A stretch of DNA of 64,000 nucleotides, taken from assembly GCA_964520345.1 (NCBI GenBank), contig CAZFMY010000027.1:1589-65588 (forward strand), in the 5' to 3' direction. Source of the DNA: an uncultured Gemmatimonadaceae bacterium. GTDB lineage: Bacteria > Latescibacterota > UBA2968 > UBA8231. A program made the position numbers and the translations under genes. The notes under the pieces are model-generated. The model saw nothing but the letters and a program-made list of their open reading frames with translations, was not told where the DNA came from and searched no databases. Within the stretch, counting starts at the first letter, position 1. Every line of letters begins with the position of its first letter. Positions 8,220 through 64,000 of this stretch are shown one piece after another.

Positions 8220-8220
8220 G

Positions 8221-10782: not shown

Positions 10783-11046
10783 TCTTATTGTGCACTTGAC
10801 ACGATTGGGCCTCTGCGGCTTTTTGTGCGAAGGACCGGAGGTTGATATGATCATTTCAAAAGGGTGTTTGGCAATACCGGTGCCGGAATTTCGGCTCTCG
10901 AGTTGGGCGTTGTATGTGTTGGAATCTGGTGGACGAGGACCAGGGGGCCGTAGAGATAGAGGAAGAAGTGCCGCGCGCGCCCGATCTGGTGTCCAGGATT
11001 CGCAAGGATCGGTGGTGGCTGCGATAAGAGCGGATCGCCTGTTGAG

Positions 11047-38124: not shown

Positions 38125-38128
38125 GGCT

Positions 38129-40468
38129 ATGACGGATCGAGGTGCGCTGACGAGTGTTGAACGCAGGGCTGTAAAGGCTTCGCCCTTTGCCGAACTCTAT
38201 CCTCCGGCCGAAAGAATCAAGACCATCGTAGTCAAGAATTTTCCGGCTTTGGGAAAATTGGCGGCGATGCGTTTTGTCGAATGGGTACAGGATCATCCCG
38301 GGGGTGTGGTCTCGCTGCCCACGGGCAAGACTCCGGAGCATTTCATCCGCTGGGTCCAACGATTGACGCAAAATTGGGACCAAGCCGAAGTTCGCAATGA
38401 ACTTGAGCTTGCGGGTATTGACCCGGGGCGCAAGCCGGATCTGCGCACTTTGCATTTTGTGCAGATCGACGAGTTCTACCCGATCGAACCTCGCCAGGAC
38501 AATAGCTTTTACGCGTATGTCAACCGTTTCTACGTGGATGGTTTCGGGTTAGACCCAGCCAAGGCCTCGTTAATCAACTGCACCGAGATCGGTTTGGCGG
38601 CTGGTCAGACGCTGAATGAGGTCTGGCCGAGTGGCGAGGTAGATCTTTCGCTGCGCTACCGCGCAGCCCGCACTGCGCTCGAGCAGACGCAGCAAGATCT
38701 GTTGGAGAGAATCGATCAGTGGTGTCAGGAATACGAAGAGCACATCCGCGCGCTGGGTGGTATCGGCTTTTTTTTAGGGGGGATTGGCCCCGATGGGCAT
38801 ATCGGATTCAACGTCCGGGGCTCGGACCATTTTTCGACGACGCGGCTGACGGAGGTAAACTACGAGACCCAGGCTGCTGCTGCTGCCGATCTGGGTGGGA
38901 TCGAAGTCGCGCGCAAGCGGCTGGTCATCACCATCGGCCTGGGCACGATTACCAGCAATCCCGATAGCTGTGCCCTAATTATCGCTGCTGGCGAAGCCAA
39001 AGCAGGCATCGTCGCTGCTGCGGTTGAGGAGGCCGCCGATATTCGCCATCCGGCTTCGGTGTTGCACCGCTTGCCCGGGGCTCGCTTCTATGTCACCCAG
39101 GGTGCGGCCAAGTTGCTGAAGGAGCGAGAGCGGGTGCTCTTTGCGCAGCAGAAAGAAATCGCTGACGCAAGCGTGGAAAAAATCCTTGTCGATCTGGCCT
39201 TTCGCTTGGGCAAGAGGGTGATTGACCTGAGCGAGGTGGATTTTGCGCAGGATGACTTTGCGACGGAATTGCTGCAGCGACGGCCAGAAAAGATCGATGC
39301 CCTGGTGGGACTGGTGCGGGATCGACTGATGAACAAGATCGGGCGCGGAACCCAGACTTTGTCGGGAACGCGCTTTTTGCATACCGAGCCTCATCACGAC
39401 GATCTGATGTTGGGATATCTTCCCTATATCGTCCGTCACGTTCGCGATGCGACTAACGTTCATTATTTCGTTTGCTTCACGGGCGGTTTTACTGCGGTGA
39501 CAAATGATTTCATTCTCGCCCATCTCGATCGGTTGAAGCAGTTTCTCAAGACTGCTGAGTGTGCCGAACTGCTGGCGGAGGGTTATTTCGATCCCGGTTA
39601 TGAAATCGGCCGCAACCGCGATATCTGGCAGTACCTCGACGGGGTCGCTGCCAACGACCAGCAACTGCGCGACGAGGGGATGGCGCGGCGCTTCTTACGC
39701 AATCTCATCGAGCTATTCGGCAAGGAGGGGGTCGAAGTAAATACCGGGGAGCTGGAGTCTTATTTTACGCAGCATTACCCTGGACAGAAAGACGCCCCGG
39801 AGGTGCAGGCGCTCAAGAGTATGTGCCGCGAGTTTGAAGCGGAATGTATCTGGGGATACTTTGGCTGGGACTGCGCCAATGTCAAGCACCTGCGTCTCGG
39901 CTTTTACACCGGTGATATCTTCACCGGGGAACCGACGGTAGAAGACGATGTGCTGCCGGTGGTGAACTTGCTCGAACGAATCCAGCCCGATGTGGTCAGT
40001 GTTGCACTCGATCCGGAGGCCAGTGGTCCAGATACTCATTACAAGGTGTTACAGGCGGTCACTGAGGCCCTGCGCCGCTACGAGCGGCAGAGCGGTCGTT
40101 CCGATCTGAAGATCTGGGGGTATCGCAATGTTTGGTTCCGCTTCGAGCCGAGCGAGGCCGATATCTTCGTGCCGGTTTCACTCAATATGCTTTCGGTGAT
40201 GCACAGCGCCTTTATGAATACATTCATTTCCCAGCGCGATGCCTCCTTCCCGTCTTACGAGTACGATGGTCCTTTTTCCGAATTGGCTCGACAGGTGCAG
40301 GTAGATCAGTACCAGAAGATCAAAACCTGCCTGGGGCGCGAGTGGTTTCAGGAGCATTCCAGCCCGCTGATCCGCGCTACTCGAGGCCTGGTTTTTCTCA
40401 AAGAGATGGATCTCAGTGAGTTCTACGAGCACAGCCGGGTGCTTAGACAAACCTTTGAAAACAGCTGA
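38129..40468 (+). CDS. Bidomain protein: NagB/6-phosphogluconolactonase-like sugar isomerase domain and LmbE/PIG-L-like deacetylase domain
   Basis: Start at ATG 38129. The N-terminal domain has SLPTGKTPE and GIGPDGHIGFNVRGS. The C-terminal domain has the PIG-L zinc motif PHHDD and a later DPEASGPDTH. Confidence 0.75.
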   Translation: MTDRGALTSVERRAVKASPFAELYPPAERIKTIVVKNFPALGKLAAMRFVEWVQDHPGGVVSLPTGKTPEHFIRWVQRLTQNWDQAEVRNELELAGIDPGRKPDLRTLHFVQIDEFYPIEPRQDNSFYAYVNRFYVDGFGLDPAKASLINCTEIGLAAGQTLNEVWPSGEVDLSLRYRAARTALEQTQQDLLERIDQWCQEYEEHIRALGGIGFFLGGIGPDGHIGFNVRGSDHFSTTRLTEVNYETQAAAAADLGGIEVARKRLVITIGLGTITSNPDSCALIIAAGEAKAGIVAAAVEEAADIRHPASVLHRLPGARFYVTQGAAKLLKERERVLFAQQKEIADASVEKILVDLAFRLGKRVIDLSEVDFAQDDFATELLQRRPEKIDALVGLVRDRLMNKIGRGTQTLSGTRFLHTEPHHDDLMLGYLPYIVRHVRDATNVHYFVCFTGGFTAVTNDFILAHLDRLKQFLKTAECAELLAEGYFDPGYEIGRNRDIWQYLDGVAANDQQLRDEGMARRFLRNLIELFGKEGVEVNTGELESYFTQHYPGQKDAPEVQALKSMCREFEAECIWGYFGWDCANVKHLRLGFYTGDIFTGEPTVEDDVLPVVNLLERIQPDVVSVALDPEASGPDTHYKVLQAVTEALRRYERQSGRSDLKIWGYRNVWFRFEPSEADIFVPVSLNMLSVMHSAFMNTFISQRDASFPSYEYDGPFSELARQVQVDQYQKIKTCLGREWFQEHSSPLIRATRGLVFLKEMDLSEFYEHSRVLRQTFENS

Positions 40469-45050: not shown

Positions 45051-46445
45051 GTGCACACGCGACCCAATATTGTCTTCATCCTCAGCGACGACCAGGGGCC
45101 CTGGGCGGCTGGTTGTTATGGCAACGAGGAGATTTGCACTCCTGCTATAGACCGCATCGCCCGGACGGGAATGCGCTTCGACAATTTTTTCGTCGCCACT
45201 CCGGTTTGCTCGCCGAGCCGCGCAACCTTTTTGACCGGGCGAATTGCCTCGCAACACGGGGTGCATGATTGGATTCGCGAAGGCAATATGGGCCAGAATG
45301 TTGCCGCTTATCTCGAGGGGGAGATAGCCTATACTGATATTCTCGCCGAACACGGCTGGATTTGCGGCTTGAGCGGCAAGTGGCATCTGGGCCACAGTCA
45401 GCTCGTACAACACGGTTTTTCGCATTGGTACACTCACCAGCATGGAGGTGGGCCCTACAACGACGCGCCGATGGTGCGCGACGGAGAGCCGGTGACGGAG
45501 CCGGGCTATGTGACGACGGCGATCACGGATGATGCGCTTGCCTTTATCGATCGCCATGCCGGTTGCGATGTCCCCTTTTACTTGAGTGTGCACTATACCG
45601 CGCCACACAGTCCGTGGACCGGGCATCCGCAGGATATTGTCGATGGGTATGACGAGTGCGCATTCGCTTCCTGCCCGCAGGAGGAGATCCATCCGTGGGC
45701 AGTGGGACACCAGCTGAGCGAGAGTTGTCTGGGCAAGCGCGAGATGCTCAAAGGCTATTTCGCGGCGGTGACGGCGATGGATAGGGATATTGGGCGGATA
45801 CTGGATAAGCTGGAGGAGAAGGGCCTGCGCGAGGATACGCTGGTGGTCTTCGTCAGCGATAATGGCTTCAGCTGTGGCCACCACGGTTTCTGGGGCAAGG
45901 GCAATGGCACCTATCCACCGAATATGTACGAGAACTCGATCAAGGTGCCCTTTGTGATCAGCCAGCCCGGGCGGGTGCCTGCAGGGAATGTGGAAGGTGC
46001 AATGGTCAGCGCCTACGACTTTATGCCGACCCTGCTGGACTATCTCGGGTTGCCGCTGCCCGCAGGGATCAACCTGCCCGGAGAGAGCGTGCTGCCACTC
46101 TGGTTAGGGCAGGGAGATACCGGTCGGGATGAGGTGGTGATTTACGACGAGTACGGCTCGACGCGGATGGTGCGCACCGAGGAGTGGAAATATGTGCATC
46201 GCTATCCAGACGGGCCTTGTGAGCTCTACGATTTGGTCAACGACCCGGACGAGCGTGTGAATCTGGCGGGTGATCCAGAGCAGCGTGTGCGGATCAATGA
46301 GTTGTACGCGCGCTTGGAAGAGTGGTTTGAGCGCTTTGTAGTACAAGGTCGTGATGGTCGCGATTTTGCCGTTACGGGTAAAGGACAACTCAGGCCCGTG
46401 GGTGGGAAGTGGGAAGGGAATGATCCATCTTTTGCAGAGGACTAG
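45051..46445 (+). CDS. Sulfatase (formylglycine type), leaderless
   Basis: GTG start. N-terminus MHTRPNIVFILSDDQG, active-site box C-S-P-S-R-ATFLTGR, and ELYDLVNDPDE. Confidence 0.85.
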   Translation: MHTRPNIVFILSDDQGPWAAGCYGNEEICTPAIDRIARTGMRFDNFFVATPVCSPSRATFLTGRIASQHGVHDWIREGNMGQNVAAYLEGEIAYTDILAEHGWICGLSGKWHLGHSQLVQHGFSHWYTHQHGGGPYNDAPMVRDGEPVTEPGYVTTAITDDALAFIDRHAGCDVPFYLSVHYTAPHSPWTGHPQDIVDGYDECAFASCPQEEIHPWAVGHQLSESCLGKREMLKGYFAAVTAMDRDIGRILDKLEEKGLREDTLVVFVSDNGFSCGHHGFWGKGNGTYPPNMYENSIKVPFVISQPGRVPAGNVEGAMVSAYDFMPTLLDYLGLPLPAGINLPGESVLPLWLGQGDTGRDEVVIYDEYGSTRMVRTEEWKYVHRYPDGPCELYDLVNDPDERVNLAGDPEQRVRINELYARLEEWFERFVVQGRDGRDFAVTGKGQLRPVGGKWEGNDPSFAED

Positions 46446-47392: not shown

Positions 47393-47426
47393 GATCTGAG
47401 CGGAAGCAGGTGCCATCGCTCAGATC
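47393..47426 (-). terminator. Hairpin overlapping the sulfatase stop codon; possible terminator
   Basis: 10-bp perfect inverted repeat gatctgagcg / cgctcagatc with a 14-nt loop. On the minus strand it is followed by GTTTTG, so the T-tract is weak. Confidence 0.35.
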
Positions 47427-48925
47427 TGGTCTTCGTCCAGGTAGTCCATCTCCGGCTTCAGGTTCCAGCGGATCGAGTCCGGTGGTTGCACATTGCGGCC
47501 CCATTCGGCGAGGATCGGTCGCTCGGCGCGCAGCTGGGCCATGCGTTCGCAGATTTGCGCGGGGTCCCAGCCTTCGAGAACTTCGGCTTTGAGCTTTTCA
47601 ACGGTGCCCTGGTGTGCTGGATCGGCGGCGAGGTCATTGAGCTCACGTGGATCGGCGGCGAGGTCAAAGAGCTGGCAGGGCTGTCCGTGGTAGTAGTTGA
47701 GCTTGAAGTTGTCGCGGCGGACCATGCGCTGGAAGATGCCTTCATCGGGGAAGGGACCGCCGGCGCCGGCGGCGTCCTGGCAGAACTCGGAGAAGGCGAC
47801 ATTGTCCCATTCGGTATTTTGCGGGTCGGTCAAGAGCGACAGCAGGCTGCGCCCCCGCGAGTGGGGCAGAGCCGGGCAGCCGAGGGCGTCGATCATCGTG
47901 GCATTGAGATCGAGCGAAGATATGACCTTGTCGCAACGGGTGCCTTCGGGCAGGTGGCCGGGCCAGGCGAGGATCGCTGGAACTTTGGCCGAGTCTTCAT
48001 AAAAGGTCTGCTTCCACCACAGTCCGTGCTCGCCGACCTGCTCACCGTGGTCGGACGAATAGACGATAAGGGTGTTTTCCTCGAGTCCGTTCTCGCGCAA
48101 CGCGGTGAATATCTGACCGATCATCACGTCCATGCGATAGACCAATGCCCAGTAGGCGGCGCGGGCGCGACGGATCTCCTCCTCGCTGACCTCCTCTATT
48201 TCGCAGGCGGTGCGCCAGAGTTGGATATGTGGGTGCAAGTGGTCGCCGAAGGATTCGTGGTTTTTCGGCGGGGTGATTTTTTCGTAGTAGCGACGGTAGT
48301 CTTCGAGTCGGGCGACGAAGGGCTGGTGTGGAAGCATGAAACCGACCGAGAGCGAGAAGGGGTCGGTCGATTCTCCGGCGCGCCTCTGGACCCCGAGGCG
48401 ATTGAGATAGTTGAGAGTAGCGGCGGTGACGTCTTCGTCGTGGACCTGGTAGGCGCTCTGGCCGTGGCCAGAGAGGCGCAGGCTGACCCTCCCCGGGCCG
48501 GCGGTGCCCGAGAGCTGGCCGTGGTTGACACCGGAGCCGCCCATTTGATTGGGGCCGTGGTCGCCAACCAGGCGCTCGGCATAACCGTGCAGCTGATCGG
48601 GGCCTACCGAGTGCATACGGCCGATCAGCGCGGGTCGGTAGCCGCCAGCGCCCATGGCATGGGCGAAAGTGGGAATTCCCGAATCGAGGATATGGGAGTT
48701 GGTCCAAACTTCATTTTCGCAGGGGTAGCGGCCCGAGAGCATCGACATCCGCGAGGGTACGCAGATTGGTGAGGGGCAGTATGTGTTGTCGAGGACTACC
48801 CCGCTTGCGGCCAGAGCATCGAGGTGGGGGGTCTCAACCAGGGGATCGCCGTAACAACCAGTGACGAAGGGGTTGTGCTGGTCGGAGTGGATATAGAGCA
48901 GGTTGGGACGGGTGTTTTTGCTCAT
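47420..48925 (-). CDS. Sulfatase (formylglycine type), leaderless
   Basis: 501 aa. N-terminus MSKNTRPNLLYIHSDQHN, active-site box C-V-P-S-R-MSMLSGR, and LFDLAADPRELNDLAADP. Confidence 0.85.
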   Translation of the reverse strand: MSKNTRPNLLYIHSDQHNPFVTGCYGDPLVETPHLDALAASGVVLDNTYCPSPICVPSRMSMLSGRYPCENEVWTNSHILDSGIPTFAHAMGAGGYRPALIGRMHSVGPDQLHGYAERLVGDHGPNQMGGSGVNHGQLSGTAGPGRVSLRLSGHGQSAYQVHDEDVTAATLNYLNRLGVQRRAGESTDPFSLSVGFMLPHQPFVARLEDYRRYYEKITPPKNHESFGDHLHPHIQLWRTACEIEEVSEEEIRRARAAYWALVYRMDVMIGQIFTALRENGLEENTLIVYSSDHGEQVGEHGLWWKQTFYEDSAKVPAILAWPGHLPEGTRCDKVISSLDLNATMIDALGCPALPHSRGRSLLSLLTDPQNTEWDNVAFSEFCQDAAGAGGPFPDEGIFQRMVRRDNFKLNYYHGQPCQLFDLAADPRELNDLAADPAHQGTVEKLKAEVLEGWDPAQICERMAQLRAERPILAEWGRNVQPPDSIRWNLKPEMDYLDEDQI

Positions 48926-49919: not shown

Positions 49920-49945
49920 TCTCTTTGGCCCTTCATTTGCCCTTT

Positions 49946-51589
49946 ATGAAAGAGCGGCACCGCAAGGGCAAAAAGCAAGCAAAACCCCCAATCAGTTCTT
50001 CTACTGAGGGCACTCCGCTTGCTCGTTTTTACCACTATGCCGATGGCTCACGCGGACGTCTGATACTACCGGCTCTCGTCGCAATCTCGACGCTATTTCT
50101 CGGCATCTGGACTTTCGATCCCAAGCTTTCTTTGAGCGGCGATAACACCGAATTCATCATTCTGGCGCGCAGTTTGGCTCAGGGCGAGGGATTGGTGCAT
50201 ATCAACTCGCCCGATCCTCAACCGGCAACCAAGTATCCGTTCGGATTGCCGCTCCTGTTGGCACCACTAGCGTGGTTTTTTCCGGGTGATTGGGTGCCGA
50301 TGAAGGCCTGGGTGCTGGTGATTTTTTCATTGGGGATGGGGATCTTGTACCAGTTGGTCAAGGAGCGGGCGGGAGCTTTACCAGCCTTGGCGACGGTAGC
50401 GCTGAGTCTGACGGTGGGTAAGAGCTATCTCACCCACGGGCCAGACGATATCGTCTATGGTCCCCTGTTATTGCACTATGCGCACCAGGTGATGTCCGAG
50501 GCTCCCTATCTGACCTTTTCGCTTTTGGCCTTGTGGCTTATCGAACGAGGTGTCGGGCGCGAGGGGGTTAGGGACAACTGGTGGCTGATTGCTGGATTTG
50601 TTTGCACCATGTGGGCCTATTATATCCGCACCGTCGGTATTGCGCTGGTGGCGGCGGTGCTGGCGTACCTGCTTCTGCGTCGCGATTTTCGGCGTGGGTT
50701 GATGTTTGCAGTGGCGGCTTTTACCTGCTGGTTGCCCTGGACTCTGCGCAATAGAGCGGTGGGTGGCGACAGCGTCTATATAAAGCAGTTGTTTATGGTC
50801 AATCCCTACCATCCGGACCGCGGTCTGCTCGACTTCGGGGGTTTTGTCGAGCGCTTTTTCGCCCACGTCCAGCTCTACCTGACGCGGGAATTGCCCAATA
50901 CACTGGTACCCTATTTCACTGGCGCTGAAACGCTTTTGCACCCTGCTGCGCTCTTGCTGGTCGGCCTCGCGGTCGCTGCGACAACGCTCTGCGTCAAGCG
51001 CGGGGAAAATTTGCTGCTCTTGCTCTATGCCGGTTTCTTCATCGGGGTAGTGCTGCTCTGGCCCTGGCCGGGTGATCGTTTCCTGATGCCGATCGTGCCG
51101 ATATTGATCTTTCTGGCCGTATGGGTTGTATTGTGGGTCCGCGATAGAGTGGCGGTGCACAATGCGGGAGCTGGTCGTTTCTTGGTGTGGGGAATCTTCC
51201 TGGTGTTTTTTTCCGCTACGCTCGGTGGCGTCAAACGTCTGGCCGACTATAGCGAAGCCGATTATCCGCCCCAATGGAGCCGCTATTACCAGGCTGGCCA
51301 GTGGCTCAAAACCCATACGCCGGAAGATGCTATTGTGCTTTGTCGCAAGGGCTACTGGATGTCTGTAGTCTCGGGTCGGCGCTGCATCGGCTTCCCGTTC
51401 AAGGAGCCCCCAATAGTGCTCGAGCATATGGAGCGAGAAGCGGTCGACTATGTCGTGCTCGAGAGTTTGGGTTTTCCGCAGACCGTGCAGTATCTGGTCC
51501 CGACCGTCAATGCGTACCGGGACCGCTTCGAGGTTCAGTGGCAGGACCAGGCGCTGCCGACTTATGTCCTGCGGTTCTTGAGCAAATAG
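49946..51589 (+). CDS. GT-C fold (ArnT/PMT_2-like) polytopic glycosyltransferase
   Basis: Polytopic membrane protein with an acidic first-loop motif LSGDNTEFIILARSL, typical of GT39/GT83-like enzymes. An alternative TTG start lies at 49925. Confidence 0.65.
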   Translation: MKERHRKGKKQAKPPISSSTEGTPLARFYHYADGSRGRLILPALVAISTLFLGIWTFDPKLSLSGDNTEFIILARSLAQGEGLVHINSPDPQPATKYPFGLPLLLAPLAWFFPGDWVPMKAWVLVIFSLGMGILYQLVKERAGALPALATVALSLTVGKSYLTHGPDDIVYGPLLLHYAHQVMSEAPYLTFSLLALWLIERGVGREGVRDNWWLIAGFVCTMWAYYIRTVGIALVAAVLAYLLLRRDFRRGLMFAVAAFTCWLPWTLRNRAVGGDSVYIKQLFMVNPYHPDRGLLDFGGFVERFFAHVQLYLTRELPNTLVPYFTGAETLLHPAALLLVGLAVAATTLCVKRGENLLLLLYAGFFIGVVLLWPWPGDRFLMPIVPILIFLAVWVVLWVRDRVAVHNAGAGRFLVWGIFLVFFSATLGGVKRLADYSEADYPPQWSRYYQAGQWLKTHTPEDAIVLCRKGYWMSVVSGRRCIGFPFKEPPIVLEHMEREAVDYVVLESLGFPQTVQYLVPTVNAYRDRFEVQWQDQALPTYVLRFLSK

Positions 51590-51623: not shown

Positions 51624-53561
51624 TTGGGATGCCCTGAATTTTCCCTCCAGTTGCCGTCGGTGCCCGTGATTCGACATTCCTCGCTGCTTGTATTCTCCTC
51701 CTATCTGGTTGTTAGTCTCATCTTCACCTATCCGCTGGTGCTGCATTTGACGACCCACGTGCCCGGTGAGGTGGCGGGTGATGTGCCGGTCTATATCTGG
51801 AATCTGTGGTGGATGCAGCAGGCGTTATCGACGGGGATCTCGCCGCTCTTTTGCGATTATATTTTCGCTCCTTATGGTGTGTCGTTGGCTTTTCACGCTT
51901 TCGTTTTTCTCAAGGCCTTCGTCGCAATTCTCCTTCAGTATTTTTTCACCGCCTGGACTGCCTACAATATTCTGATCCTGGTGACCTTTGCGCTCTCTGG
52001 TTGGACAATGTTTCTGCTGGCGCGCCATCTCAGTGGCGATGCTCGGGCGGCGTGGCTGGCGGGGTTGGTCTACGCTTTCAGTCCCTATATGCTGACCCGC
52101 GGGACAGGCCATCTCAATTATCTCAGCGGCGAGTGGATGCCGCTCTATGCGCTCTGCCTGATCCGCCTTTTGCAAACGCGCGAGAAGCGTTGGGCTTGGG
52201 GCGGCGGACTCTGTCTATTGCTAACGGCGTACTGCGAATACTACTATCTTATCTACCTGACATTATTCACCGTTTTTTATCTGGGATGGCGATTTCGATG
52301 CGATCGGCAAGAGCTCTTGAACTCGACCTTTCTCATTCGTTTCGCACTGATGGGCGCTGGTGCTGTGGTGGGTTTTGCACCGATCCTGTGGGTGCTCTTT
52401 GGTACGGCGCAGAGCAGCTACATATATGGTGGGTGGGGGGCTTCGGCCAAACTGGGGGCGGATCTATTAGCTTTTTTCTCGCCCCCGCCGGGAAGCCTGC
52501 TCTACGGCGATATCAGCGCGGGGCTTTATGAGACGTTCTCTGGTGGAAATGCGGTAGAGGGCACGGTCTTCACTGGCTATGTCGTGCTCGGTTTGAGCGC
52601 AATCTGCATCTGGCGTTTGCGGGGCGATGAGTCGGTGCGGCTCTGGTTGTGGTTGACACTGGTGTTTTTCCTGCTTTCACTTGGGCCCTTGCTGCACGTT
52701 GGCGGAGACTTCGTCTTCGGGATCGGCCCTGTGCGATTCGTCGTGCCATTGCCCTATGTGGTCGTGCGCTATTTGCCGCTGATCAAGGGAGCTCGAGTGC
52801 CGGCGCGTTTCGATATTATGGTCGTTATGGGATTGGCGGTGCTCAGTGCCTACGGGGTGCGCTATTGGCTCGGTCGGGTTGAATACCCCGCACGTTGGAT
52901 AGCGGCAATTGTCCTTCTGGTTGCCTTGGAGTATCTTAGGATGCCCTATCCGGTCGCTGCGGTGGAAATCCCCGGTGCCTATCGGACCATTGCCGGTGAA
53001 AGCGGTGACCGAGTGGTGATGGACGTGCCCCTGGGTTGGCGTACTGGCTGGGGCAGTACCGGGCGCAGTCTCGACCACCAGCAGCTCTTTCAAATCGTTC
53101 ATGGCAAGCGTTTGCTCGGTGGCTTTGCCTCGCGTATTCCCGAAGACGAATTGCGGCGGATGGCCGCTCTGCCGGGCATTGGTCGGCTTCTGGATCTGCA
53201 GGAGCAACTGCCTGCAACTCCTGCGCCGACAGCGGCCCGCAGGCCCTTTATCAGGGCTCAGCTAACAGAGCTTTTAGATCACTTGCCTGTTTTTTTGCGC
53301 CAGCGGTTGATGCGCGAAGGTGCGGTGCGCGACTTCCTCGCCAATACCTCGGCCGAGCGGCGGATTGCAGAGCAGGCTCCGCGCTCGCGTTCCCTGCGCC
53401 AGTTGGTGGATGTGGTGGAGTTGGGATATGTCGTTGTGCATCCGCCCTATAGCGGGTACGCGCCGATTCGGCGCTATCTTGAAACGGGTTTGCCGCTGGA
53501 GAAGTTCTACGATCAAGGTGGTGTGATAGGCTATCGGATCGTCGATGGTATGGATCATTAG
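51624..53561 (+). CDS. YfhO/DUF6311-like polytopic membrane protein (putative GT-C transferase), start uncertain
   Basis: 645 aa. The N-terminus YPLVLHLTTHVPGE..GDVPVYIWNLWW resembles YfhO-type proteins. TTG 51624 or GTG 51666 start, neither with an SD sequence. Confidence 0.6.
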   Translation: MGCPEFSLQLPSVPVIRHSSLLVFSSYLVVSLIFTYPLVLHLTTHVPGEVAGDVPVYIWNLWWMQQALSTGISPLFCDYIFAPYGVSLAFHAFVFLKAFVAILLQYFFTAWTAYNILILVTFALSGWTMFLLARHLSGDARAAWLAGLVYAFSPYMLTRGTGHLNYLSGEWMPLYALCLIRLLQTREKRWAWGGGLCLLLTAYCEYYYLIYLTLFTVFYLGWRFRCDRQELLNSTFLIRFALMGAGAVVGFAPILWVLFGTAQSSYIYGGWGASAKLGADLLAFFSPPPGSLLYGDISAGLYETFSGGNAVEGTVFTGYVVLGLSAICIWRLRGDESVRLWLWLTLVFFLLSLGPLLHVGGDFVFGIGPVRFVVPLPYVVVRYLPLIKGARVPARFDIMVVMGLAVLSAYGVRYWLGRVEYPARWIAAIVLLVALEYLRMPYPVAAVEIPGAYRTIAGESGDRVVMDVPLGWRTGWGSTGRSLDHQQLFQIVHGKRLLGGFASRIPEDELRRMAALPGIGRLLDLQEQLPATPAPTAARRPFIRAQLTELLDHLPVFLRQRLMREGAVRDFLANTSAERRIAEQAPRSRSLRQLVDVVELGYVVVHPPYSGYAPIRRYLETGLPLEKFYDQGGVIGYRIVDGMDH

Positions 53562-53595: not shown

Positions 53596-54324
53596 TTGGA
53601 CTCGACAACGGGTGAGCTACCGACTCTCTTTATCGTTATTCCAGCGCTCAACGAGGAAGAGAATATCGGGCAGACACTCGAGTGCCTTGAGGACCAGGTC
53701 GACCTGCCCTGCGAAGTGATCGTGGTCGATGATCACTCGACCGACGCGACCGGGGAGGTGGTGCGCCGTTTTGCTGAGGAGCACTCCAATGTGCGCCTGG
53801 TGAAGAACGAGGGTCCGCGTGGCTTCAGCAATGCGTTGAAAGTGGGTTATGAAGCCGCTGGCTCCGGTGTGATCGTTACGATGATGGCCGATCTTTGCGA
53901 CGATCCGCAGACGTTGGCCCCGATGTACGAGAAGATTCTCGAGGGCTACGATGTGGTCTGTGGATCGCGTTATATGCCGGGGGGTGGCAAGCGCAACGAG
54001 GATAGCGAGGTCAAGGGTATGTTCTCCCGCTTTGTCGGGCTTTCGCTCCGTCGTTTGGTGGGCGTGCCGACCCACGACGCGACCAACGCCTTCAAGATGT
54101 ACCGCAGTGAGGTGATTAAGAATATCCCTATCGAGGAGGCGGGTTTCGCCTCTTCGATGGAGATTACGGTGAAGGCTTTTTTACGCGGGGCGAAGATTGC
54201 AGAAGTACCGACGGTATGGCGGGGGCGCACGGCGGGTAAGTCTAAGTTCAGCATATTGAAAGGTGGGAAGGACTACCTGCGTTGGTATGTGTGGGCAGTT
54301 CTACTGCGCAAGCACAAATTCTGA
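53596..54324 (+). CDS. GT2 polyprenyl-phosphate sugar synthase (Dpm1/GtrB/ArnC-like)
   Basis: 242 aa, TTG start. Blocks: IVIPALNEEENI, VIVVDDHSTDAT, MMADLCDDP. No C-terminal TM helices. Confidence 0.8.
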   Translation: MDSTTGELPTLFIVIPALNEEENIGQTLECLEDQVDLPCEVIVVDDHSTDATGEVVRRFAEEHSNVRLVKNEGPRGFSNALKVGYEAAGSGVIVTMMADLCDDPQTLAPMYEKILEGYDVVCGSRYMPGGGKRNEDSEVKGMFSRFVGLSLRRLVGVPTHDATNAFKMYRSEVIKNIPIEEAGFASSMEITVKAFLRGAKIAEVPTVWRGRTAGKSKFSILKGGKDYLRWYVWAVLLRKHKF

Positions 54325-57739: not shown

Positions 57740-57826
57740 AAATCGCCTTTTTTTAACAGGATCGGAAGCGGTTGAATTTAAAAGAGATGCGATTGTTTTT
57801 TGCACTCTTTGGCCGGGGTGGCGACG

Positions 57827-59347
57827 ATGAACTTACTGCTCTTAACATTGCTGATTGGATGCACCCCCGCAGAAGAGGTCCCGCGTTTGGTGGAGGTGGC
57901 AGATACTGCGCCGGACGCAAAGAGGTGGGTTTGGACCGATAGAGAGATGGGTTGGAGATCCTGGAGCCAGGATCTCTTTGAAGAGGCTGGACGTGAGGAT
58001 CGGCCTGTTTTGGTCTATTTGGCGGCCCCTGGGTGCGAGGGGCTGTTCCCGGCGCCGACTCCCGGATTGCGGCGATTGGTAGCGGATGGTTTTATCAGCA
58101 CAAGGGTCGATCCATTCAAACGCCCGGATATCGCAAATTATTACGATACCGGTGGTTGGCCCGCTCTGGCTATAGCGCTGCCGAATGGACGGATTTTCGC
58201 TAGAGCCGTCGATATTCCGCCGACCAATATCGAATCCTATCTCCGTCGATTGCGGCTGGCCTATGATGAACAGCGCGCAGTTCTCATTGATAAGGTCCAG
58301 CAGGCTGGGAAGGTGCAAGACGCGCGGATGCCCTTTGAAGTTGTGGCGGTCTACCGGGCATGTGCAGTGGCTTTCGACTCGCTGCACGGTGGTTTCGGTG
58401 GACCGGCCAAGTTTCTTGAAGCGTCGGTTTTGCGCTTTTTGCTGGCCTATGGCGAAGCGAAAGACGAAGAGCGGGCAATGCAGATGGCTCTGACGAGTCT
58501 GGACGCCGTGCTTGATTCGCCGCTTAGCGATGGTGGTGGTTTCCTGGCCTACTCGTACGCGCCGAACTGGCGCGCTCCTGCGGGCGAGATGGATGGCTTG
58601 GATCAGGCGGCGATGCTACACCTCTTGCTCGAAGCCGGTCAGCCCCGTTATACGGTGGCAGCCAGGGCTTTGCTCGACTTTGTCGAACGCGAGTTCTTTG
58701 ATCCAATCGAGGGCGTGTTTTGGGGACGCCAGGTAGCTCTGCCTCCTTATGAGGATGAGGCTCCTGGTCGGAGAGATAGCTCCAGGGGGTGGTGGACCGA
58801 CCCGACGCTCTACGCCGATCGTCAGGCGGCTCTGATCCGGGCCTGTCTCGCGGCGGCAACTGTGCTCGAGGACGATCGCGCTGCCCGCTTGGCGACTCGA
58901 GCGGGCGACGCATTGATTGCGCGCTGTATTGACGATCGTGGTGGAGTGCGACACGTTTGTGGGGTCGGAGAGGAGAGCATCTCAGGGCTTCTGGTCGACC
59001 AGGCTTTGGTGGCGCTGGCGCTTCGTGATCTGCTCGAGTGGAGCGGGGAAGCGCGCTTTGGGATTGCAGCTAAGCGGGTCGTGCGTTTTATGGAGCAGGA
59101 ACTCGGAGGTCGAACCGCTTTTTATAATCGCGCCGTCGGTCCGTTGCCGCGGTTTTTCGCGCACTGCGATGATGATCGACCCGCTGGAAATGCTCTGGCT
59201 CTTGAATTCTATGGAGAGCAAGGGGATGCCGCGCAATCGGCCAGGCTGATGGAAGGACTTCACCTGGTAACGGAGCCGGACCGGGCGTATAGCTCTTGGG
59301 CGCGTGGCGTTTTGCGCTATGGCGCGATGGCGAAAACATCTCTATGA
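57827..59347 (+). CDS. YyaL/SSP411 (DUF255 thioredoxin-like + alpha/alpha toroid)-like lipoprotein with a degenerate redox motif
   Basis: Start at ATG 57827 gives MNLLLLTLLIGC with a lipobox L-I-G-C. DUF255-like blocks: RPVLVYL....RVDPFKRPDI, GGFGGPAKF. The CHWC box is replaced by CEGL. Confidence 0.7.
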   Translation: MNLLLLTLLIGCTPAEEVPRLVEVADTAPDAKRWVWTDREMGWRSWSQDLFEEAGREDRPVLVYLAAPGCEGLFPAPTPGLRRLVADGFISTRVDPFKRPDIANYYDTGGWPALAIALPNGRIFARAVDIPPTNIESYLRRLRLAYDEQRAVLIDKVQQAGKVQDARMPFEVVAVYRACAVAFDSLHGGFGGPAKFLEASVLRFLLAYGEAKDEERAMQMALTSLDAVLDSPLSDGGGFLAYSYAPNWRAPAGEMDGLDQAAMLHLLLEAGQPRYTVAARALLDFVEREFFDPIEGVFWGRQVALPPYEDEAPGRRDSSRGWWTDPTLYADRQAALIRACLAAATVLEDDRAARLATRAGDALIARCIDDRGGVRHVCGVGEESISGLLVDQALVALALRDLLEWSGEARFGIAAKRVVRFMEQELGGRTAFYNRAVGPLPRFFAHCDDDRPAGNALALEFYGEQGDAAQSARLMEGLHLVTEPDRAYSSWARGVLRYGAMAKTSL

Positions 59348-60243
59348 AGATACTGGTGACAGGAGCGAATGGTTTTTTGGGCCGCAGTCTGCTCACCCTG
59401 GATGGAGAGGTGGAATGGATCGGCTGCGGGCGCCGGAGTGCTGTGGGCGGGATTCCCTATCGCCAAGCTGAATTGGCCGACCGGGACTCAATGGCTGCGC
59501 TGGTTGCCGAAGTGGAACCGGATTGGGTGATTAATACGGCAGCAATGACCAATGTCGATCGATGCGAAAAAGATGCTCGGGAGGCGCGGCAAGCCAATGT
59601 CGAGATTGTCGAGACCCTGGCGGAGGTCTGTGGTGTCACAGGCGTCGGTCTGGTGCAGATTTCGACCGATTATGTCTTCGACGGCAAGGAGGGGCCCTAT
59701 GCCGAAGGAGATAGGACGACACCTTTGTCTCGCTATGGCCAACTCAAACTGGAAAGCGAGCGCGTGCTGGATAAATTGGACCGGACTATGGTGGTGCGGA
59801 CCTTGTGGCTTTACGGCTACGTCCCCCAGGCGGGGTCCAATTTCATCACCTGGTTGCTGAATGCGCTTCCCTGCGGTGAGCCGTTGCGGGTTTTTGCCGA
59901 CCAATGGGGTAATCCGACCTATGCTAATGACCTGGCCCGCGCGCTTGTAGCACTCTGTCGTCAAGAGGCTCGGGGGCTTTTCCACATGGGAGGTACTACC
60001 TTTATGACGCGTTACGAGTTGGCACTCGAAGTGGCGCGTTTCTTTGATCTCGACGGCGAGTTGATTCAACCGGTGCCGACTCAGGAGGCCGGACTTTCGG
60101 CTGTGCGGCCTCTGCGCTCGGGGCTTTGCACCGATGCTTTGGAAGCAGAACTGGGTTATCGGCCGCTGAGTTTTGCCGAGGGGTTGCAGGACCTGGCCAG
60201 CGATCCTCGTTTCCGCCGCGACTTTCCCCGGTTTGCCCTCTAA
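59344..60243 (+). CDS. RmlD/RfbD-like (dTDP-4-dehydrorhamnose reductase family) SDR
   Basis: MKILVTGANGFLG, STDYVFDG and YGQLK (YxxxK). The ATG overlaps the upstream stop (ATGA). Confidence 0.8.
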   Translation: MKILVTGANGFLGRSLLTLDGEVEWIGCGRRSAVGGIPYRQAELADRDSMAALVAEVEPDWVINTAAMTNVDRCEKDAREARQANVEIVETLAEVCGVTGVGLVQISTDYVFDGKEGPYAEGDRTTPLSRYGQLKLESERVLDKLDRTMVVRTLWLYGYVPQAGSNFITWLLNALPCGEPLRVFADQWGNPTYANDLARALVALCRQEARGLFHMGGTTFMTRYELALEVARFFDLDGELIQPVPTQEAGLSAVRPLRSGLCTDALEAELGYRPLSFAEGLQDLASDPRFRRDFPRFAL

Positions 60244-60253
60244 AGAGCCACTC

Positions 60254-60973
60254 ATGGACCCAATGCGGATTTCGCTGATCACACCGACCTACAACGAGCG
60301 AGAGAACCTGACGCTCTTGGCCGAGGAGATCTTTGCCATTGTCGGCGCCGAACCCGATATAGATTTGGAACTGATCGTCGTCGATGACGGATCGCCTGAT
60401 GGCACCGGAGAGGTGGCGGAGGAACTGAAAGCCAGCTATCCCCTGCAAGTGGTGCACCGGGCCGCCAAGCTAGGTCTGGGGTCGGCGGTGATGGCGGGTT
60501 TCGCCCTCTCCGACCGGCCTTATCTCGGCGTGATCGACGCCGATTTGAGTCACGATCCAGCGATATTACCTGAATTGGTCCATAGTCTGCGCGAATACGA
60601 TATCGCCATGGGTAGTCGCTTTGGGGAAACCAGTCGGGTCGAAAAATGGGCCTGGCATCGCAAGTTGACCTCGCAGGTTGGCGTGGGTTCGGCCCGGCTG
60701 CTGACCGGGGCCGAAGATCCGCTCTCTGGTTATTTCTGCCTGCGTCGCGAAGTCCTGGAGGGCTTCGAGTTGACTTCTTCCGGCTACAAGATCCTGCTTG
60801 AGATTCTGGTAAAGGGACGCTACGAAAGGCATCGTTCAGTGCCCTTTGTCTTCCGCAATCGCCAGTTCAGCTCTAGCAAGCTCAATCTACGCGAATACCT
60901 GCTTTTCACTAAACAGATCCTCTACTTCAGTGGCTACAAGCTTTTGCGCCGATCCAAAGGCGGTGGGTCATGA
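60254..60973 (+). CDS. Polyprenol-monophosphate mannose/sugar synthase (Dpm1/Ppm1-like GT2)
   Basis: ISLITPTYNERENL, LIVVDDGSPDGT, KLGLGSAVMAGF and IDADLSHDP, the classical DPM1 family blocks. Confidence 0.85.
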   Translation: MDPMRISLITPTYNERENLTLLAEEIFAIVGAEPDIDLELIVVDDGSPDGTGEVAEELKASYPLQVVHRAAKLGLGSAVMAGFALSDRPYLGVIDADLSHDPAILPELVHSLREYDIAMGSRFGETSRVEKWAWHRKLTSQVGVGSARLLTGAEDPLSGYFCLRREVLEGFELTSSGYKILLEILVKGRYERHRSVPFVFRNRQFSSSKLNLREYLLFTKQILYFSGYKLLRRSKGGGS

Positions 60974-62652
60974 GACTGAGCGTCGTTTTCCTCAGCTATA
61001 ATACGCGTGACTTGACCAAGCAGGCTCTGAGCTCAGTGCTCGATGCAGCCGAATGCATGGAAGTGGAGGTCCTCGTTGTTGACAACGCCTCTGTAGATGG
61101 CAGCGCCGATATGGTAGAGGAAGAATTTCCCCAGGTGAAACTAATTCGCAACGAGGACAATGTCGGTTTTGCGGCTGGCAACAATGTGGCTCTGCGGCAG
61201 GTGGTTGGAGAATATGTGCTCTTGATCAATACCGATACTATTGTGCGGCGGGATGCGTTGCTCACGATGGTGGATTTTTTGGACGCACACCCGGAGGCCG
61301 GAGCTTGCGGGTGCAAAATTCTCGATCCCGATGGCACCTTGCAACTCGACAGCCGCCGAGGTTTCCCAACACCAGTGGCCGCTTTCTGCAAGATGTCGGG
61401 ACTGAGTCGTCTCTTTCCCAATCACCCGGTTATTTCTCGCTATTATATGACCTATCTAGACCCCGAGCAGATGGCGGAAGTCGAAGTCCTTTCCGGGTCT
61501 TGTATGATGGTGCGCAAAACGGTGATAGACCAGGTCGGATTGTTAGATGAAGACTACTTCATGTACGGTGAGGATATTGATTGGTGCTACCGGATCTACC
61601 AGGCCGGCTGGAAAATATACTATGTACCGGATACGGAGATTATTCACTTCCGTGGCGAGAGTGGCAAAGGGGCGCCGCTGAGGATTCTTTATCGCAAGAG
61701 TAAAGCGATGTCGATCTTTGTCAATAAGCATATGGCGCGGCGCTTTCGCTTTTTTCCGCTCTGGCTGCTGCAGGTGGGCATTGCTCTGCACGGAGGTTTT
61801 CGATTCTTCGTCAAGACTGGCCGCACCCTGTCCCTGCCTCTGGTCGATGCGGCGCTGGTGCTCAGCGGATTGAAGTTGGCCCTGGCTGTCCGCTATCACC
61901 AGGATCTTGTGCCTTTTATCTACCCCATCGAGCGGATTGGCAATCTTTTCGGCCTTGATGCCCAGCCGACTCGCTGGCTGACTCCGCCTCCCTATTCGGA
62001 TTTGCAGTGGATCGTAGTCTATGGTGTCGCGACTCTGGTCTGGTTAGTGGCATTCTATGTGTCGGGCCTGTACGATCGTCGTCGCTATTCGGTGCCTTGG
62101 TCGGTGGTGGGAGTTGCACTAGGCTCGGCTTTTATCGTGACTCTGGCGTTCTTCTTCAAGGACTACAACTTTTCACGGCTGGCGACTGCTGCGGCTTTTG
62201 TCTGTAATGCGGTGCTGATTGCCAGCTGGCGTTTTGCCGCGCGTTGGGTATTGCACCAGCGCGGTCGTTCAGGACGATTGCGCACTTTGTTGGTGGGCAA
62301 CGATCAAGCAGCAGTGGACTTTATCGAGTATATCCAACGGACGGGCAGTTCCATCTATGATTTGATCGGCGTGGTCGGCCAGCGACCCGAAGACCAGGAT
62401 CGTCCGCTGGCCGGTCGACCTGTGATCGGTCTGGTCGGTGAATTTGAGGCCCTGATCCGAGATTACGCGATCGACCAGGTGGTGTTTACGCCGAGCACAA
62501 TGTCCGTGCTCTTGGAGCAGATGGGGCAGTCTTGGGATGCGCAGGATCTACGGATCAGCATGGTTCCGATCTCATTTGCGAAGATGGTTGCAAATCGGAG
62601 TGCCAACGAGACCGAACAGCTGCCTCTGGTCAGGATCGGGGTGGGTAGATGA
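60970..62652 (+). CDS. Fusion: N-terminal GT2 glycosyltransferase and WbaP-type N-terminal module (TM helices + CoA_binding_3-like domain) without the phosphoglycosyltransferase domain
   Basis: GT2 blocks: LSVVFLSYNT, LVVDNASVDGS, NVGFAAGNN, LLINTDT. These are followed by about 4 TM helices and RTLLVGNDQAAVDFIEY...DLIGVVG...GRPVIGLVGEFEALIRDYAIDQVVF. The protein ends at LPLVRIGVGR, where WbaP-type enzymes begin their catalytic domain. Confidence 0.7.
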   Translation: MRLSVVFLSYNTRDLTKQALSSVLDAAECMEVEVLVVDNASVDGSADMVEEEFPQVKLIRNEDNVGFAAGNNVALRQVVGEYVLLINTDTIVRRDALLTMVDFLDAHPEAGACGCKILDPDGTLQLDSRRGFPTPVAAFCKMSGLSRLFPNHPVISRYYMTYLDPEQMAEVEVLSGSCMMVRKTVIDQVGLLDEDYFMYGEDIDWCYRIYQAGWKIYYVPDTEIIHFRGESGKGAPLRILYRKSKAMSIFVNKHMARRFRFFPLWLLQVGIALHGGFRFFVKTGRTLSLPLVDAALVLSGLKLALAVRYHQDLVPFIYPIERIGNLFGLDAQPTRWLTPPPYSDLQWIVVYGVATLVWLVAFYVSGLYDRRRYSVPWSVVGVALGSAFIVTLAFFFKDYNFSRLATAAAFVCNAVLIASWRFAARWVLHQRGRSGRLRTLLVGNDQAAVDFIEYIQRTGSSIYDLIGVVGQRPEDQDRPLAGRPVIGLVGEFEALIRDYAIDQVVFTPSTMSVLLEQMGQSWDAQDLRISMVPISFAKMVANRSANETEQLPLVRIGVGR

Positions 62653-64000
62653 GCGGTGTCGGTCGAGTCGGGACACTGTTTTTATGCGTCCTCTGCGTCA
62701 TCTGGGTACTAAAAGCTGGTACCGCACCTGCGCGGGAATCAGGTTTGCAATTGGTGCTGGAAGTACGCGACAATATACATCGAGAGTATGTCGACGAACT
62801 CGACAGTATGCGCATCATCGATGCGGGGCTCGATGGTCTGGTCGCGGGACTGGATGCGGGCGAAAATCTCTACCGCAGCCCAAGGGACCTCGGTGCTGAA
62901 CGAGTAGCGTTGGATGACCGTCGCCAGGTCGATCTGCTGCACGAGGCATTGGAGAAAGTGCAGGTGCAGTATCTAGAATCGGTTCCGTCCGATTCGCTGG
63001 CTCGAGATCTGGTTCGGGGAATGTTGACAGCTCTGGATCCGCACTCGAGTTATTTGGAGGCTGCCGAGTACGCAGAGATGGTCGAGACTTACCGCGGCGA
63101 TTTCGAGGGTATCGGTATCTACTTCGAAGTCCGGCAGGGCCGGCTCCTGGTTATTGCGCCGATCGTTGGTTCGCCCTCTTACGGCAAATTGCGGGCTGGT
63201 GACCATATCGTCGAGATCGAGGGGGTGCCCACTGACGGGATCACGACCGAGCAGGTGATGGAGAAGTTGAGAGGACCTCGTGGTTCGGAGGTACGGGTGG
63301 GCGTCCATCGCCAGGGCCGGGATGCGCTTCTCGAATTTGAAATTCGCCGCGACCGAATCGAGTTGAAAAGCGTACCTTACCGCTTTATGCTTGCAGAGGG
63401 CACGGGCTATGTGCGGATCGTGCGCTTTGCCGAGACGACTGGCGAGGAATTGGGTCAGGCTCTGGATTTTTTGCACCGAGAGGGAATGGAGCGGTTGCTG
63501 CTCGATTTGCGCGATAATGGTGGCGGACTTCTGGAACAGGCAGTAGAGGTAGCGGACTATTTTGTCGACGCCGGATCGCTGGTTGTCTACACCGAAGGGC
63601 GCGAGGCCGATTCAAGGCACGAGTATCGGGCTCGCCGTCCGCTGCGCGACCCGATGGCGTTGGTGGTATTGATCGATCACGGTAGTGCTTCGGCTTCCGA
63701 GATCGTCGCCGGCGCAGTGCAGGATCTCGACCTGGGGTTGGTTGCGGGTCAGACCAGCTTCGGCAAGGGATTGGTCCAGGGGCAGTTTCCGCTCAGGAAC
63801 AACGGCGGACTGCTGCTCTTGACGGTGGCTCGTTACTATACGCCTCTTGGTCGACTGATACAGCGACCCTATTCCGGCGATATCCAGGCCTATATCCAGG
63901 CGGGGATCGACGATGTGGATCCCAACAGCATTGATAGCCTACGGGTTCGCAAGGAAATCTTTTACACCGCTTCGGGTCGTTCAGTTTATGGCGGTGGTGG
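62649..64000 (+). CDS. S41 family C-terminal processing peptidase (partial, runs off the window; not in the supplied ORF track)
   Basis: My own translation from ATG 62649 (ATGA overlap with the upstream stop) is open to the window end. It starts MSGVGRVGTLFLCVLCVIWVL (TM anchor). A PDZ region follows (GIGIYFEV..GSPSYGKLRAGDHIVEIEG), then LLLDLRDNGGG, catalytic GSASASEI and TSFGKGLVQ. Confidence 0.85.
   Translation, partial: MSGVGRVGTLFLCVLCVIWVLKAGTAPARESGLQLVLEVRDNIHREYVDELDSMRIIDAGLDGLVAGLDAGENLYRSPRDLGAERVALDDRRQVDLLHEALEKVQVQYLESVPSDSLARDLVRGMLTALDPHSSYLEAAEYAEMVETYRGDFEGIGIYFEVRQGRLLVIAPIVGSPSYGKLRAGDHIVEIEGVPTDGITTEQVMEKLRGPRGSEVRVGVHRQGRDALLEFEIRRDRIELKSVPYRFMLAEGTGYVRIVRFAETTGEELGQALDFLHREGMERLLLDLRDNGGGLLEQAVEVADYFVDAGSLVVYTEGREADSRHEYRARRPLRDPMALVVLIDHGSASASEIVAGAVQDLDLGLVAGQTSFGKGLVQGQFPLRNNGGLLLLTVARYYTPLGRLIQRPYSGDIQAYIQAGIDDVDPNSIDSLRVRKEIFYTASGRSVYGGG

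Follow-up and report, generated by a model that had tools for sequence, protein, structure and literature searches.

A probable membrane-embedded GT2 glycosyltransferase anchored by a WbaP-type module without a phosphoglycosyltransferase domain

Near the end of the window, the whole 64,000-nucleotide stretch of contig CAZFMY010000027.1 (assembly GCA_964520345.1, an uncultured Gemmatimonadaceae bacterium) that was analyzed here, one gene encodes a 560-aa fusion protein composed of a family 2 glycosyltransferase (GT2) domain, four transmembrane (TM) helices and a Rossmann-like domain of unknown function (DUF; CoA_binding_3). The helices and the DUF form a module, here termed 4TM-DUF, that resembles part of the large phosphoglycosyltransferases (Lg-PGTs) such as WbaP, and the protein ends without the catalytic phosphoglycosyltransferase (PGT) domain, Bac_transf. 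Our best explanation, to which we give a probability of about 0.6, is an active, membrane-embedded GT2 enzyme whose anchor is an Lg-PGT-derived 4TM-DUF module devoid of the PGT catalytic domain. A sequence-only reading of this DNA had offered a non-initiating enzyme retaining an accessory module as one possibility, and this remains the best reading, with the GT2 catalytic residues intact and Bac_transf absent. Judged by its domain content, phospho-sugar-transfer chemistry is excluded for the 560-aa protein because it has no PGT domain, and the protein cannot initiate glycan synthesis by that route.

The GT2 domain appears to be catalytically intact. Pfam models PF00535 and PF13641 matched residues 4–189 (1.1e-23; 84.4 bits against a cut-off of 23.3) and 3–231 (68.5 bits against a cut-off of 27), in line with the GT2 domain that had been placed at residues 1 to about 230 from the sequence alone. 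The full-length AlphaFold2 (AF2) model has a mean pLDDT (predicted local distance difference test) of 89.4, with values above 90 over residues 1–220 of the GT-A part, and its Foldseek matches were GT-A enzymes only (top E values ~1e-11 to 1e-12). Residues D38, N39, D43, N87, D89 (as N87-T-D89), E201, D202 and H226 do not vary across a set of 48 diverse family members to which the window protein belongs, so that the acidic motifs of DxD type for nucleotide and metal binding and the region of the catalytic base are kept.

The C-terminal half has the layout that the sequence-only reading described, about four TM helices followed by a Rossmann-like segment from about position 62278. Hydropathy and AF2 place the helices at residues 288–309, 344–364, 375–395 and 403–~424, and the DUF, with five strands and three helices in the AF2 model, begins with its first β-strand from residue 437 (nucleotide ~62278). 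Because the four TM helices separate the GT2 domain and the DUF, both would lie on the cytoplasmic side, which is consistent with the topology of WbaP (PMC10942596). CoA_binding_3 (PF13727) matched residues 366–507 (1e-9; 39.1 bits against a gathering cut-off of 25), whereas PF02397 (Bac_transf) gave no match in the protein even at E≤1, the combination expected of a WbaP-type module that ends at LPLVRIGVGR without its PGT domain. PF02719/SDR (short-chain dehydrogenase/reductase) was also without a match in the 560-aa protein. Among the NCBIfam models, TIGR03023 (WcaJ) matched at 2e-16 and TIGR03025 (EPS_sugtrans) at 1.2e-20; the latter aligned residues 348–556 to profile positions 30–245 of 445, a portion that, by the profile, covers no more of an Lg-PGT than its N-terminal half, which is not catalytic.

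By sequence, the module is closer to those of PGTs than to those of PglF-like dehydratases. A profile of residues 335–560, built from 21 family members, matched WbaP chains at 2e-11 and the WbaP structure 8T53 at 7e-10, covering TM2–TM4 and the first part of the DUF. The motifs FSR, GWR and IVG are common to both sides of this alignment; within TM2–TM4 of the window protein, FSR (residues 401–403) and WR (residues 420–421) are conserved in the family and in WbaP, and S402 and R403 are invariant. A single-sequence phmmer search of the C-terminal 230 aa against the PDB returned nothing relevant, and WbaP was reached with the family profile. Used alone as a query, the window module recovered the N-termini of genuine Lg-PGTs in two other loci (L009 and L011). 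The AF2 model of residues 335–560 (pLDDT 87.3) matched 8T53 in Foldseek at 1.2e-3, behind 3NKL at 8.7e-5 (TM-score 0.69 on the target); the NAD(H)-sensing Rex proteins ranked after these two. 3NKL is annotated as a UDP-D-quinovosamine 4-dehydrogenase and is WbpM/PglF-like; the module profile matched it at 1e-3. The module is known from PglF/WbpM-like dehydratases as well as from PGTs (PMC10942596). The assignment to the Lg-PGT type therefore stands as a statement of origin, by way of the Bac_transf remnants in relatives, and not as one of exclusivity. We rejected the alternative that the module stems from a PglF-type protein, since PGT profiles score far better and the relatives keep Bac_transf remnants.

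The gene itself is complete. Its stop codon, TGA, overlaps the ATG of the next gene at 62649 as ATGA (GTAGATGAGC). Two of the three frames after the stop are closed, and none of the three, when translated, contains Bac_transf- or PGT-like sequence. A search with the PglC sequence from the PDB alignment found no PglC-like open reading frame (ORF) anywhere in the 64-kb window. The identical protein is present on 14 independent contigs, and 119 of the 120 listed homologue clusters (74–80% identity, Gemmatimonadota, named 'glycosyltransferase [Gemmatimonadota]' in databases) are 550–565 aa long with the same Pfam architecture, several of them on multi-Mb contigs. A frameshift near 62650 that conceals a Bac_transf domain, one of the two refutations named by the sequence-only reading, was thus rejected: the downstream frames are closed or encode the S41 peptidase that follows, the PglC scan of the window and of all loci uncovered no missed Bac_transf domain, and the homologues share the same length.

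A decaying or artefactual gene, whether a pseudogene cut short or an Lg-PGT fusion disrupted by frameshift or misassembly, with a C-terminal module that is a relic without function, would agree with the progressive loss of C-terminal parts in the history of the family and with the lower conservation of the DUF, for which pairwise identity among close homologues is 76.5%, compared to 87% for the TM region and 91% for the GT2 domain. This explanation is effectively refuted by the recurrence of the protein on independent contigs, by the constant length and architecture of the 119 clusters, some on complete multi-Mb contigs, by the clean 4-bp overlap with the next gene in the absence of PGT-like sequence in any following frame, and by invariant motifs in both the TM region and the DUF (LLVG.D, LIG, AGRP, VFT.S and SMVP in the DUF of close homologues). 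Because the 119 clusters keep the module and these motifs, the 4TM-DUF module is under constraint without a PGT domain, to a lesser degree than the GT2 domain.

The relatives suggest where the module came from. When 1.84 billion cluster representatives were searched exhaustively with HMMER, many full-length relatives (query residues 3–556) emerged at 30–53% identity, with E values of 1e-80 to 1e-186 for the matches at 35–53% identity. Among the best 150 relatives examined (50%-identity cluster representatives), 106 have the TM-DUF module after the GT2 domain. A Bac_transf-derived tail of a further 101–220 aa is present in 82 of the 106, and 23 end at most 25 aa after the module, as the window protein does. 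The usual family member is ~650–720 aa and consists of GT2, 4TM, DUF and a shrunken Bac_transf remnant; databases label these proteins just 'glycosyltransferase' or 'O-antigen biosynthesis protein'. The sequence-only proposal that an accessory module was recombined with a GT2 therefore holds in that a GT2 is fused to a WbaP-type module, while the tails in most relatives indicate that the module was probably not recombined alone.

The PGT remnants of the long forms lack the residues of catalysis. PF02397 matches in long forms are weak or partial and fall mostly at profile positions ~78–179, and a profile of 14 tails matched PglC (8E37) at 1.6e-25 and WbaP (8T53) at 3.5e-23. Motifs were counted in 137 tails (the 82 representatives and 55 genome or metagenome loci), limited to ORFs with a GT2 domain. 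The Asp-Glu dyad together with GPRP occurs in 0 of the 137, while KRxxD at the start of the re-entrant helix is kept in 111 and GxxSxVG in 98. The PglC segment 'SLDELPQL...GPRP' is aligned with a non-conserved 'rrlieklpl...Gse' in the tails, and ~25–70 residues before the dyad position are deleted, including the region of the KF(K/R)TM-type motif. The tails have a median length of 124 aa, compared to ~180–200 aa for the complete catalytic domain of genuine Lg-PGTs encoded nearby. These neighbors serve as an internal control, as all 13 have DE[ILVF]PQ and GPRP, 17 residues apart, whereas the fusion at the same locus has neither. Because no tail combines dyad and GPRP and the controls are intact, the long forms are, on their motif content, GT2 enzymes on an Lg-PGT-like scaffold without a PGT catalytic core and not bifunctional GT/PGT enzymes. 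In the Bacteroidota clade (e.g., L026–L084) the remnants are uniformly miniature, with tails of 111–123 aa in which hardly anything separates GxxSxVG from the preceding re-entrant helix.

The window protein ends at the linker 'LPLVRIG', which corresponds to 'xPLxxIxY' in the family and directly precedes the KRxFD re-entrant helix of the tails; the truncation therefore lies exactly at the domain boundary. Residues 536–560 sit where Lg-PGTs have the linker or β-hairpin between DUF and PGT domain, and the segment may be equivalent to that hairpin. Together with the tails in 82 of 106 relatives and the nesting of the window clade beside long forms, the stop at the linker makes it likely that the protein arose by C-terminal loss from a three-part GT2::Lg-PGT-like protein.

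By similarity, the fusion belongs to a large family of the FCB (Fibrobacterota–Chlorobiota–Bacteroidota) group. A scan of GTDB species genomes found at least 80 loci, 70 of which were classified; the loci listed come from Gemmatimonadota, Latescibacterota, Ignavibacteriota, Kryptonia, many orders of Bacteroidota, Neomarinimicrobiota, Calditrichota, TA06 and KSB1. Short forms come from Gemmatimonadota/Latescibacterota (L005, L006, L010, P0121 and others), from L065 and from Calditrichota/KSB1 (L041, L059, P0128 and others), and they are not fragments because they are located on long contigs. One long form from a metagenome-assembled genome labeled 'Bifidobacterium breve' (L036, CALQEU020000011.1) is of the Bacteroidota type and groups with loci from Bacteroidales; the contig was probably mis-binned. 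Trees were built by neighbor joining, without model-based support and with weak rooting, and bootstrapped on 46 taxa. The window clade has 100/100 support and is nested with other short forms beside the long forms P0125, from the Gemmatimonadota genome CP070758.1, and P0122. No replicate (0/100) united the two short clades to the exclusion of long forms, which suggests that short forms arose at least twice by independent loss.

The genes around the fusion offer a context for its function. In the window the order is rmlD, a DPM1-like GT2 gene, the fusion gene and the S41 peptidase gene, with ATGA overlaps at both ends of the fusion gene. The DPM1-like protein, of 239 aa, contains no TM segment. 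Its gene is directly upstream of the fusion in at least 24 non-self loci, from several phyla and with long and short forms alike; among the loci listed, no other neighbor is as well conserved. rmlD occupies the same upstream position in at least seven other loci. In one short-form locus (L010) the order is YfhO-like, rmlD, DPM1-like, short form, and the closest long forms (L085 and L087) lie in blocks of YfhO (a GT-C), RmlD-like, further genes, DPM1-like, fusion and accA. The Ignavibacteriota order is epimerase, GT4, GT2, DAO, Lg-PGT, DPM1-like, fusion and accA, with Wzx further on. DPM1-like and rmlD neighbors were not found near the fusion in the Bacteroidota loci listed. The accA gene follows the long-form fusion directly in genomes that include Gemmatimonadota and Ignavibacteriota (L085, 10160–11149; L087, 8602–9591; L046, 11983–12933); in L087 it is followed by Trm112, mreCD, PBP2 and rodA, and the fusion-accA block lies among housekeeping envelope genes and not in a variable O-antigen island.

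In our preferred explanation, the ancestral family of GT2::4TM::DUF::PGT-remnant proteins would already have lost the catalytic core of the PGT domain, the Asp-Glu dyad with its surroundings, and the Gemmatimonadota/Latescibacterota clade would then have deleted the remnant wholly at the domain boundary. Working at the cytoplasmic face of the membrane, the enzyme would use a nucleotide sugar as donor and extend a glycan carried on polyprenyl-(pyro)phosphate. The leading guess for the sugar is L-rhamnose, donated by dTDP-rhamnose, in view of the adjacent rmlD and of the likeness between the GT2 domain and the WbbL-type rhamnosyltransferases. The enzyme may cooperate with the translationally coupled, TM-less DPM1-like polyprenyl-phosphate-sugar synthase and with a GT-C of the YfhO/DUF2079 type. 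The PGT-derived module would provide membrane placement and dimerization, as the DUF does in WbaP, and the protein itself is probably a dimer; the module may also sense uridine or thymidine nucleotides or dock to a genuine Lg-PGT.

Several points weigh against this explanation. We infer the donor, the acceptor and the oligomeric state alike. The GT2 domain scores only 65.7 bits with the WbbL-type model TIGR01556, far under its cut-off of 200, and rmlD is linked to the fusion in some lineages only. As the DUF is the least conserved region in close homologues, its role may be mainly structural. In the monomer AF2 models, residues 536–541 form a helix with no clear β-hairpin, and pLDDT is lower at the C-terminus. 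The extended short clade was free of long forms in only 57/100 replicates. The opposite direction of change, in which the short form is ancestral and a PGT piece was fused later, is a less likely alternative.

A gene for a genuine Lg-PGT (~470–490 aa, both DE.PQ and GPRP retained) lies 0.7–3 kb upstream of the fusion in at least 13 Ignavibacteriota and Kryptonia loci (L009, L011, L014, L017, L018, L019, L021, L023, L027, L029, L045, L046 and L074). Only the DPM1-like gene stands between the two, as in L046 (Lg-PGT, 7868–9271; fusion, 9992–11980). This arrangement bears on a split Lg-PGT, in which the PGT domain resides on a separate small PglC-like gene and docks onto the 4TM-DUF module, rebuilding the initiating enzyme in trans, with the second glycosyltransferase joined to it. 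Such a split would use the module in its usual role, N-terminal to a PGT catalytic domain, and the upstream PGT gene of Ignavibacteriota and Kryptonia is in the same operon as the fusion. However, these neighbors are not small PGTs but Lg-PGTs of full extent, each with a TM-DUF module of its own, a PglC-like ORF is absent from the window and from within ±10 kb in the listed Gemmatimonadota, Latescibacterota and Bacteroidota loci, and the long relatives show degeneration in place and not relocation. We consider a split enzyme improbable.

The presence of a dyad-less paralogue beside a genuine Lg-PGT suggests heterodimerization. In WbaP the dimer is domain-swapped with the DUF as its interface, and the DUF binds UMP, UDP and UTP (PMC10942596); in structural modeling the response regulator EpsW sits against the cytoplasmic portion of EpsZ, an Lg-PGT, and a dimer interface between DUFs is restored (PMC12802240). 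One explanation built on such contacts is an assembly platform, where the module mainly recruits an Lg-PGT, through a DUF or hairpin heterodimer, and/or the DPM1-like synthase, and GT2 activity is secondary. The pairs GacJ-GacI, DPM3-DPM1 and Ppm2-Ppm1 provide an analogy; the DPM1-like enzyme is both TM-less and coupled to the fusion by ATGA, besides being its most frequent neighbor; the DUF has the role of dimer interface in WbaP; and Lg-PGT, DPM1-like gene and fusion are consecutive in L046 and about 12 other loci. Nevertheless, conservation is highest at the GT2 catalytic residues, which makes it hard to see enzymatic activity as only secondary, the contacts with the partners are conjectural, and both partner genes are absent nearby in Bacteroidota members. 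A platform of this kind is rather unlikely. We hold out, as a tentative possibility, that the 4TM-DUF module is an autonomous unit kept by selection without PGT chemistry, tethering a second-step GT2, and perhaps the DPM1-like synthase, to an Lg-PGT paralogue by DUF-DUF heterodimerization in a membrane glycan-assembly complex. As such a unit it could be a candidate lipid-carrier or nucleotide-sensing platform, or an oligomerization platform.

Comparison with known systems places the active, module-anchored GT2 enzyme of our preferred explanation among, but apart from, several classes. By profile, fold and active-site residues the protein is a GT2; by its domain content it is neither an Lg-PGT, a bifunctional PGT nor a PglF-type dehydratase. 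It shares with the Lg-PGTs (WbaP, CpsE, WcaJ; 8T53) a four-helix TM bundle followed by a cytoplasmic PF13727 Rossmann-like DUF and the FSR, GWR and IVG motifs. Unlike them, it has no Bac_transf domain, re-entrant helix, Asp-Glu dyad (DELPQ) or GPRP, and its module is C-terminal to a GT2 domain whereas that of Lg-PGTs is N-terminal to the PGT domain. The membrane NDP-sugar 4,6-dehydratases of the PglF/WbpM/CapD type (N-terminal domain structure 3NKL) likewise carry the 4TM and PF13727 module on a non-PGT catalytic domain. In those, a short-chain dehydrogenase/reductase-type dehydratase (Polysacc_synt_2) is C-terminal to the module, whereas the window protein has a GT-A domain N-terminal to it; the window module is closer to PGT modules (2e-11 compared to 1e-3), and its relatives carry Bac_transf remnants. 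In bifunctional PGTs (Bi-PGTs), a PGT core is fused to a glycosyltransferase or acetyltransferase, as in PglB of N. gonorrhoeae (PMC11257628, PMC12776464), and GT-PGT fusions are known as a class (PMC11257628). The present family resembles them in joining a glycan-pathway enzyme domain and PGT-family parts in one polypeptide; it differs in that the PGT core is degenerate in the long relatives and absent from the window protein, so the family is monofunctional at most. PMC12776464 also lists 'Myxococcales bacterium GT1' (A0A7Y3BPP4), a transmembrane 'bifunctional monoPGT'/glycosyltransferase purified in lipid nanoparticles, which may have a related architecture.

Two further comparisons concern the glycosyltransferase side. 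The WbbL-type GT2 rhamnosyltransferases (TIGR01556) are the best named GT2 similarity (3.6e-18, residues 30–231), and rmlD is adjacent to the fusion; to our knowledge, WbbL enzymes are soluble or peripheral and have no 4TM-DUF module. The three-component periplasmic glycosylation systems, which combine an undecaprenyl-phosphate-sugar synthase of the CsbB/GtrB type, a flippase and a YfhO or other GT-C protein (GacI-GacJ-GacL), are resembled, in gene context alone, by the DPM1-like GT2, the YfhO or DUF2079 GT-C and rmlD beside the fusion. No such system is known to us in which a GT2 is joined to a module derived from a PGT.

The fusion family constitutes a third class of proteins carrying the 4TM-DUF module, spread across a whole superphylum. 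In WbaP the module has been assigned dimerization and UMP sensing, and its presence in unrelated PglF-like dehydratases was called 'puzzling' (PMC10942596). Because PGT catalysis is absent from the window protein, the function of its module cannot be the regulation of a PGT active site in cis. The family provides a natural experiment, in which the PGT domain is dyad-less and appears to have been lost outright at least twice, yet module and GT2 are conserved. The 560-aa protein or its residues 436–560 are simple constructs for studies of nucleotide binding, dimerization and partner recruitment. If the module is indeed autonomous, the forms with a dead or missing PGT domain would amount to separation-of-function variants made by nature, which show what the module does. 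The family also calls for caution in annotation, as a domain search will count the long relatives among the Bi-PGTs, as initiating enzymes with both GT and PGT function, despite the missing dyad. In a limited literature search, we found no paper on a PGT-fusion family without the catalytic dyad, or on PGT-less derivatives.

Table 1. Features of the fusion gene and of other genes in the window (nucleotide positions; residues, res, are those of the encoded protein).
Feature	Position	Strand	Basis or remarks
Whole fusion ORF	60970..62652	+	ATG start, 560 aa; GT2, 4 TM and CoA_binding_3 (DUF), without Bac_transf
GT2 (GT-A fold) catalytic domain, res 1–~233	60970..61668	+	PF00535/PF13641, invariant columns, AF2, Foldseek
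Juxtamembrane helices, res 236–254, 262–~285 and 311–326, with TM1, res ~288–309	61675..61947	+	AF2 secondary structure, hydropathy
TM2–TM4, res 344–364, 375–395, 403–~432	61999..62265	+	Hydropathy, AF2, profile alignment to WbaP structures
Rossmann-like DUF/CoA_binding_3, res ~436–535, β1 'TLLVGND'	62275..62574	+	PF13727, AF2, Foldseek
C-terminal segment, res 536–560, end 'LPLVRIGVGR'	62575..62649	+	Long-form tail alignment, WbaP alignment 'LLRIQNNLAKRSSRFLKRTFD', conserved L.L in close homologues
S41 C-terminal-processing peptidase with PDZ domain; runs past window end	62649..64000	+	Only open frame after the fusion stop; not a PGT domain
DPM1/AglJ/ArnC-like GT2, polyprenyl-phosphate sugar synthase type, 239 aa	60254..60973	+	Stop overlaps fusion ATG (ATGA)
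rmlD (dTDP-4-dehydrorhamnose reductase)	59344..60243	+	TIGR01214, 230 bits against a cut-off of 224
Second TM-less Dol-P-hexose-transferase-like GT2, ~7 kb upstream of fusion	53596–54324		
Polytopic membrane protein, 645 aa, GT-C-like	51624–53561	+	Weak DUF2079/DUF6311 matches
Polytopic membrane protein, 554 aa, ~8–10 hydrophobic segments	49925–51589	+	No Pfam or NCBIfam match

Further upstream in the window, the two polytopic membrane proteins and the second TM-less GT2 (Table 1) may constitute a periplasmic glycosylation set. Directly upstream of rmlD, in the slot that YfhO occupies in L010, L085 and L087, is a gene (57800–59347, + strand) for a protein of 515 aa that begins with a signal or anchor segment and has only a sub-threshold match to the thioredoxin-like DUF255. 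An 800-aa ORF with no Pfam match (38066–40468, + strand) lies between acetate kinase and a cluster of epimerase, FAD-oxidoreductase and GFO-type oxidoreductase genes. Finally, two sulfatase genes (PF00884 and SGSH_C; 45051–46445, + strand, and 47420–48925, − strand) stand on either side of an amidohydrolase_2 gene, and this patch near the glycan-synthesis genes looks like one for the utilization of a sulfated glycan.

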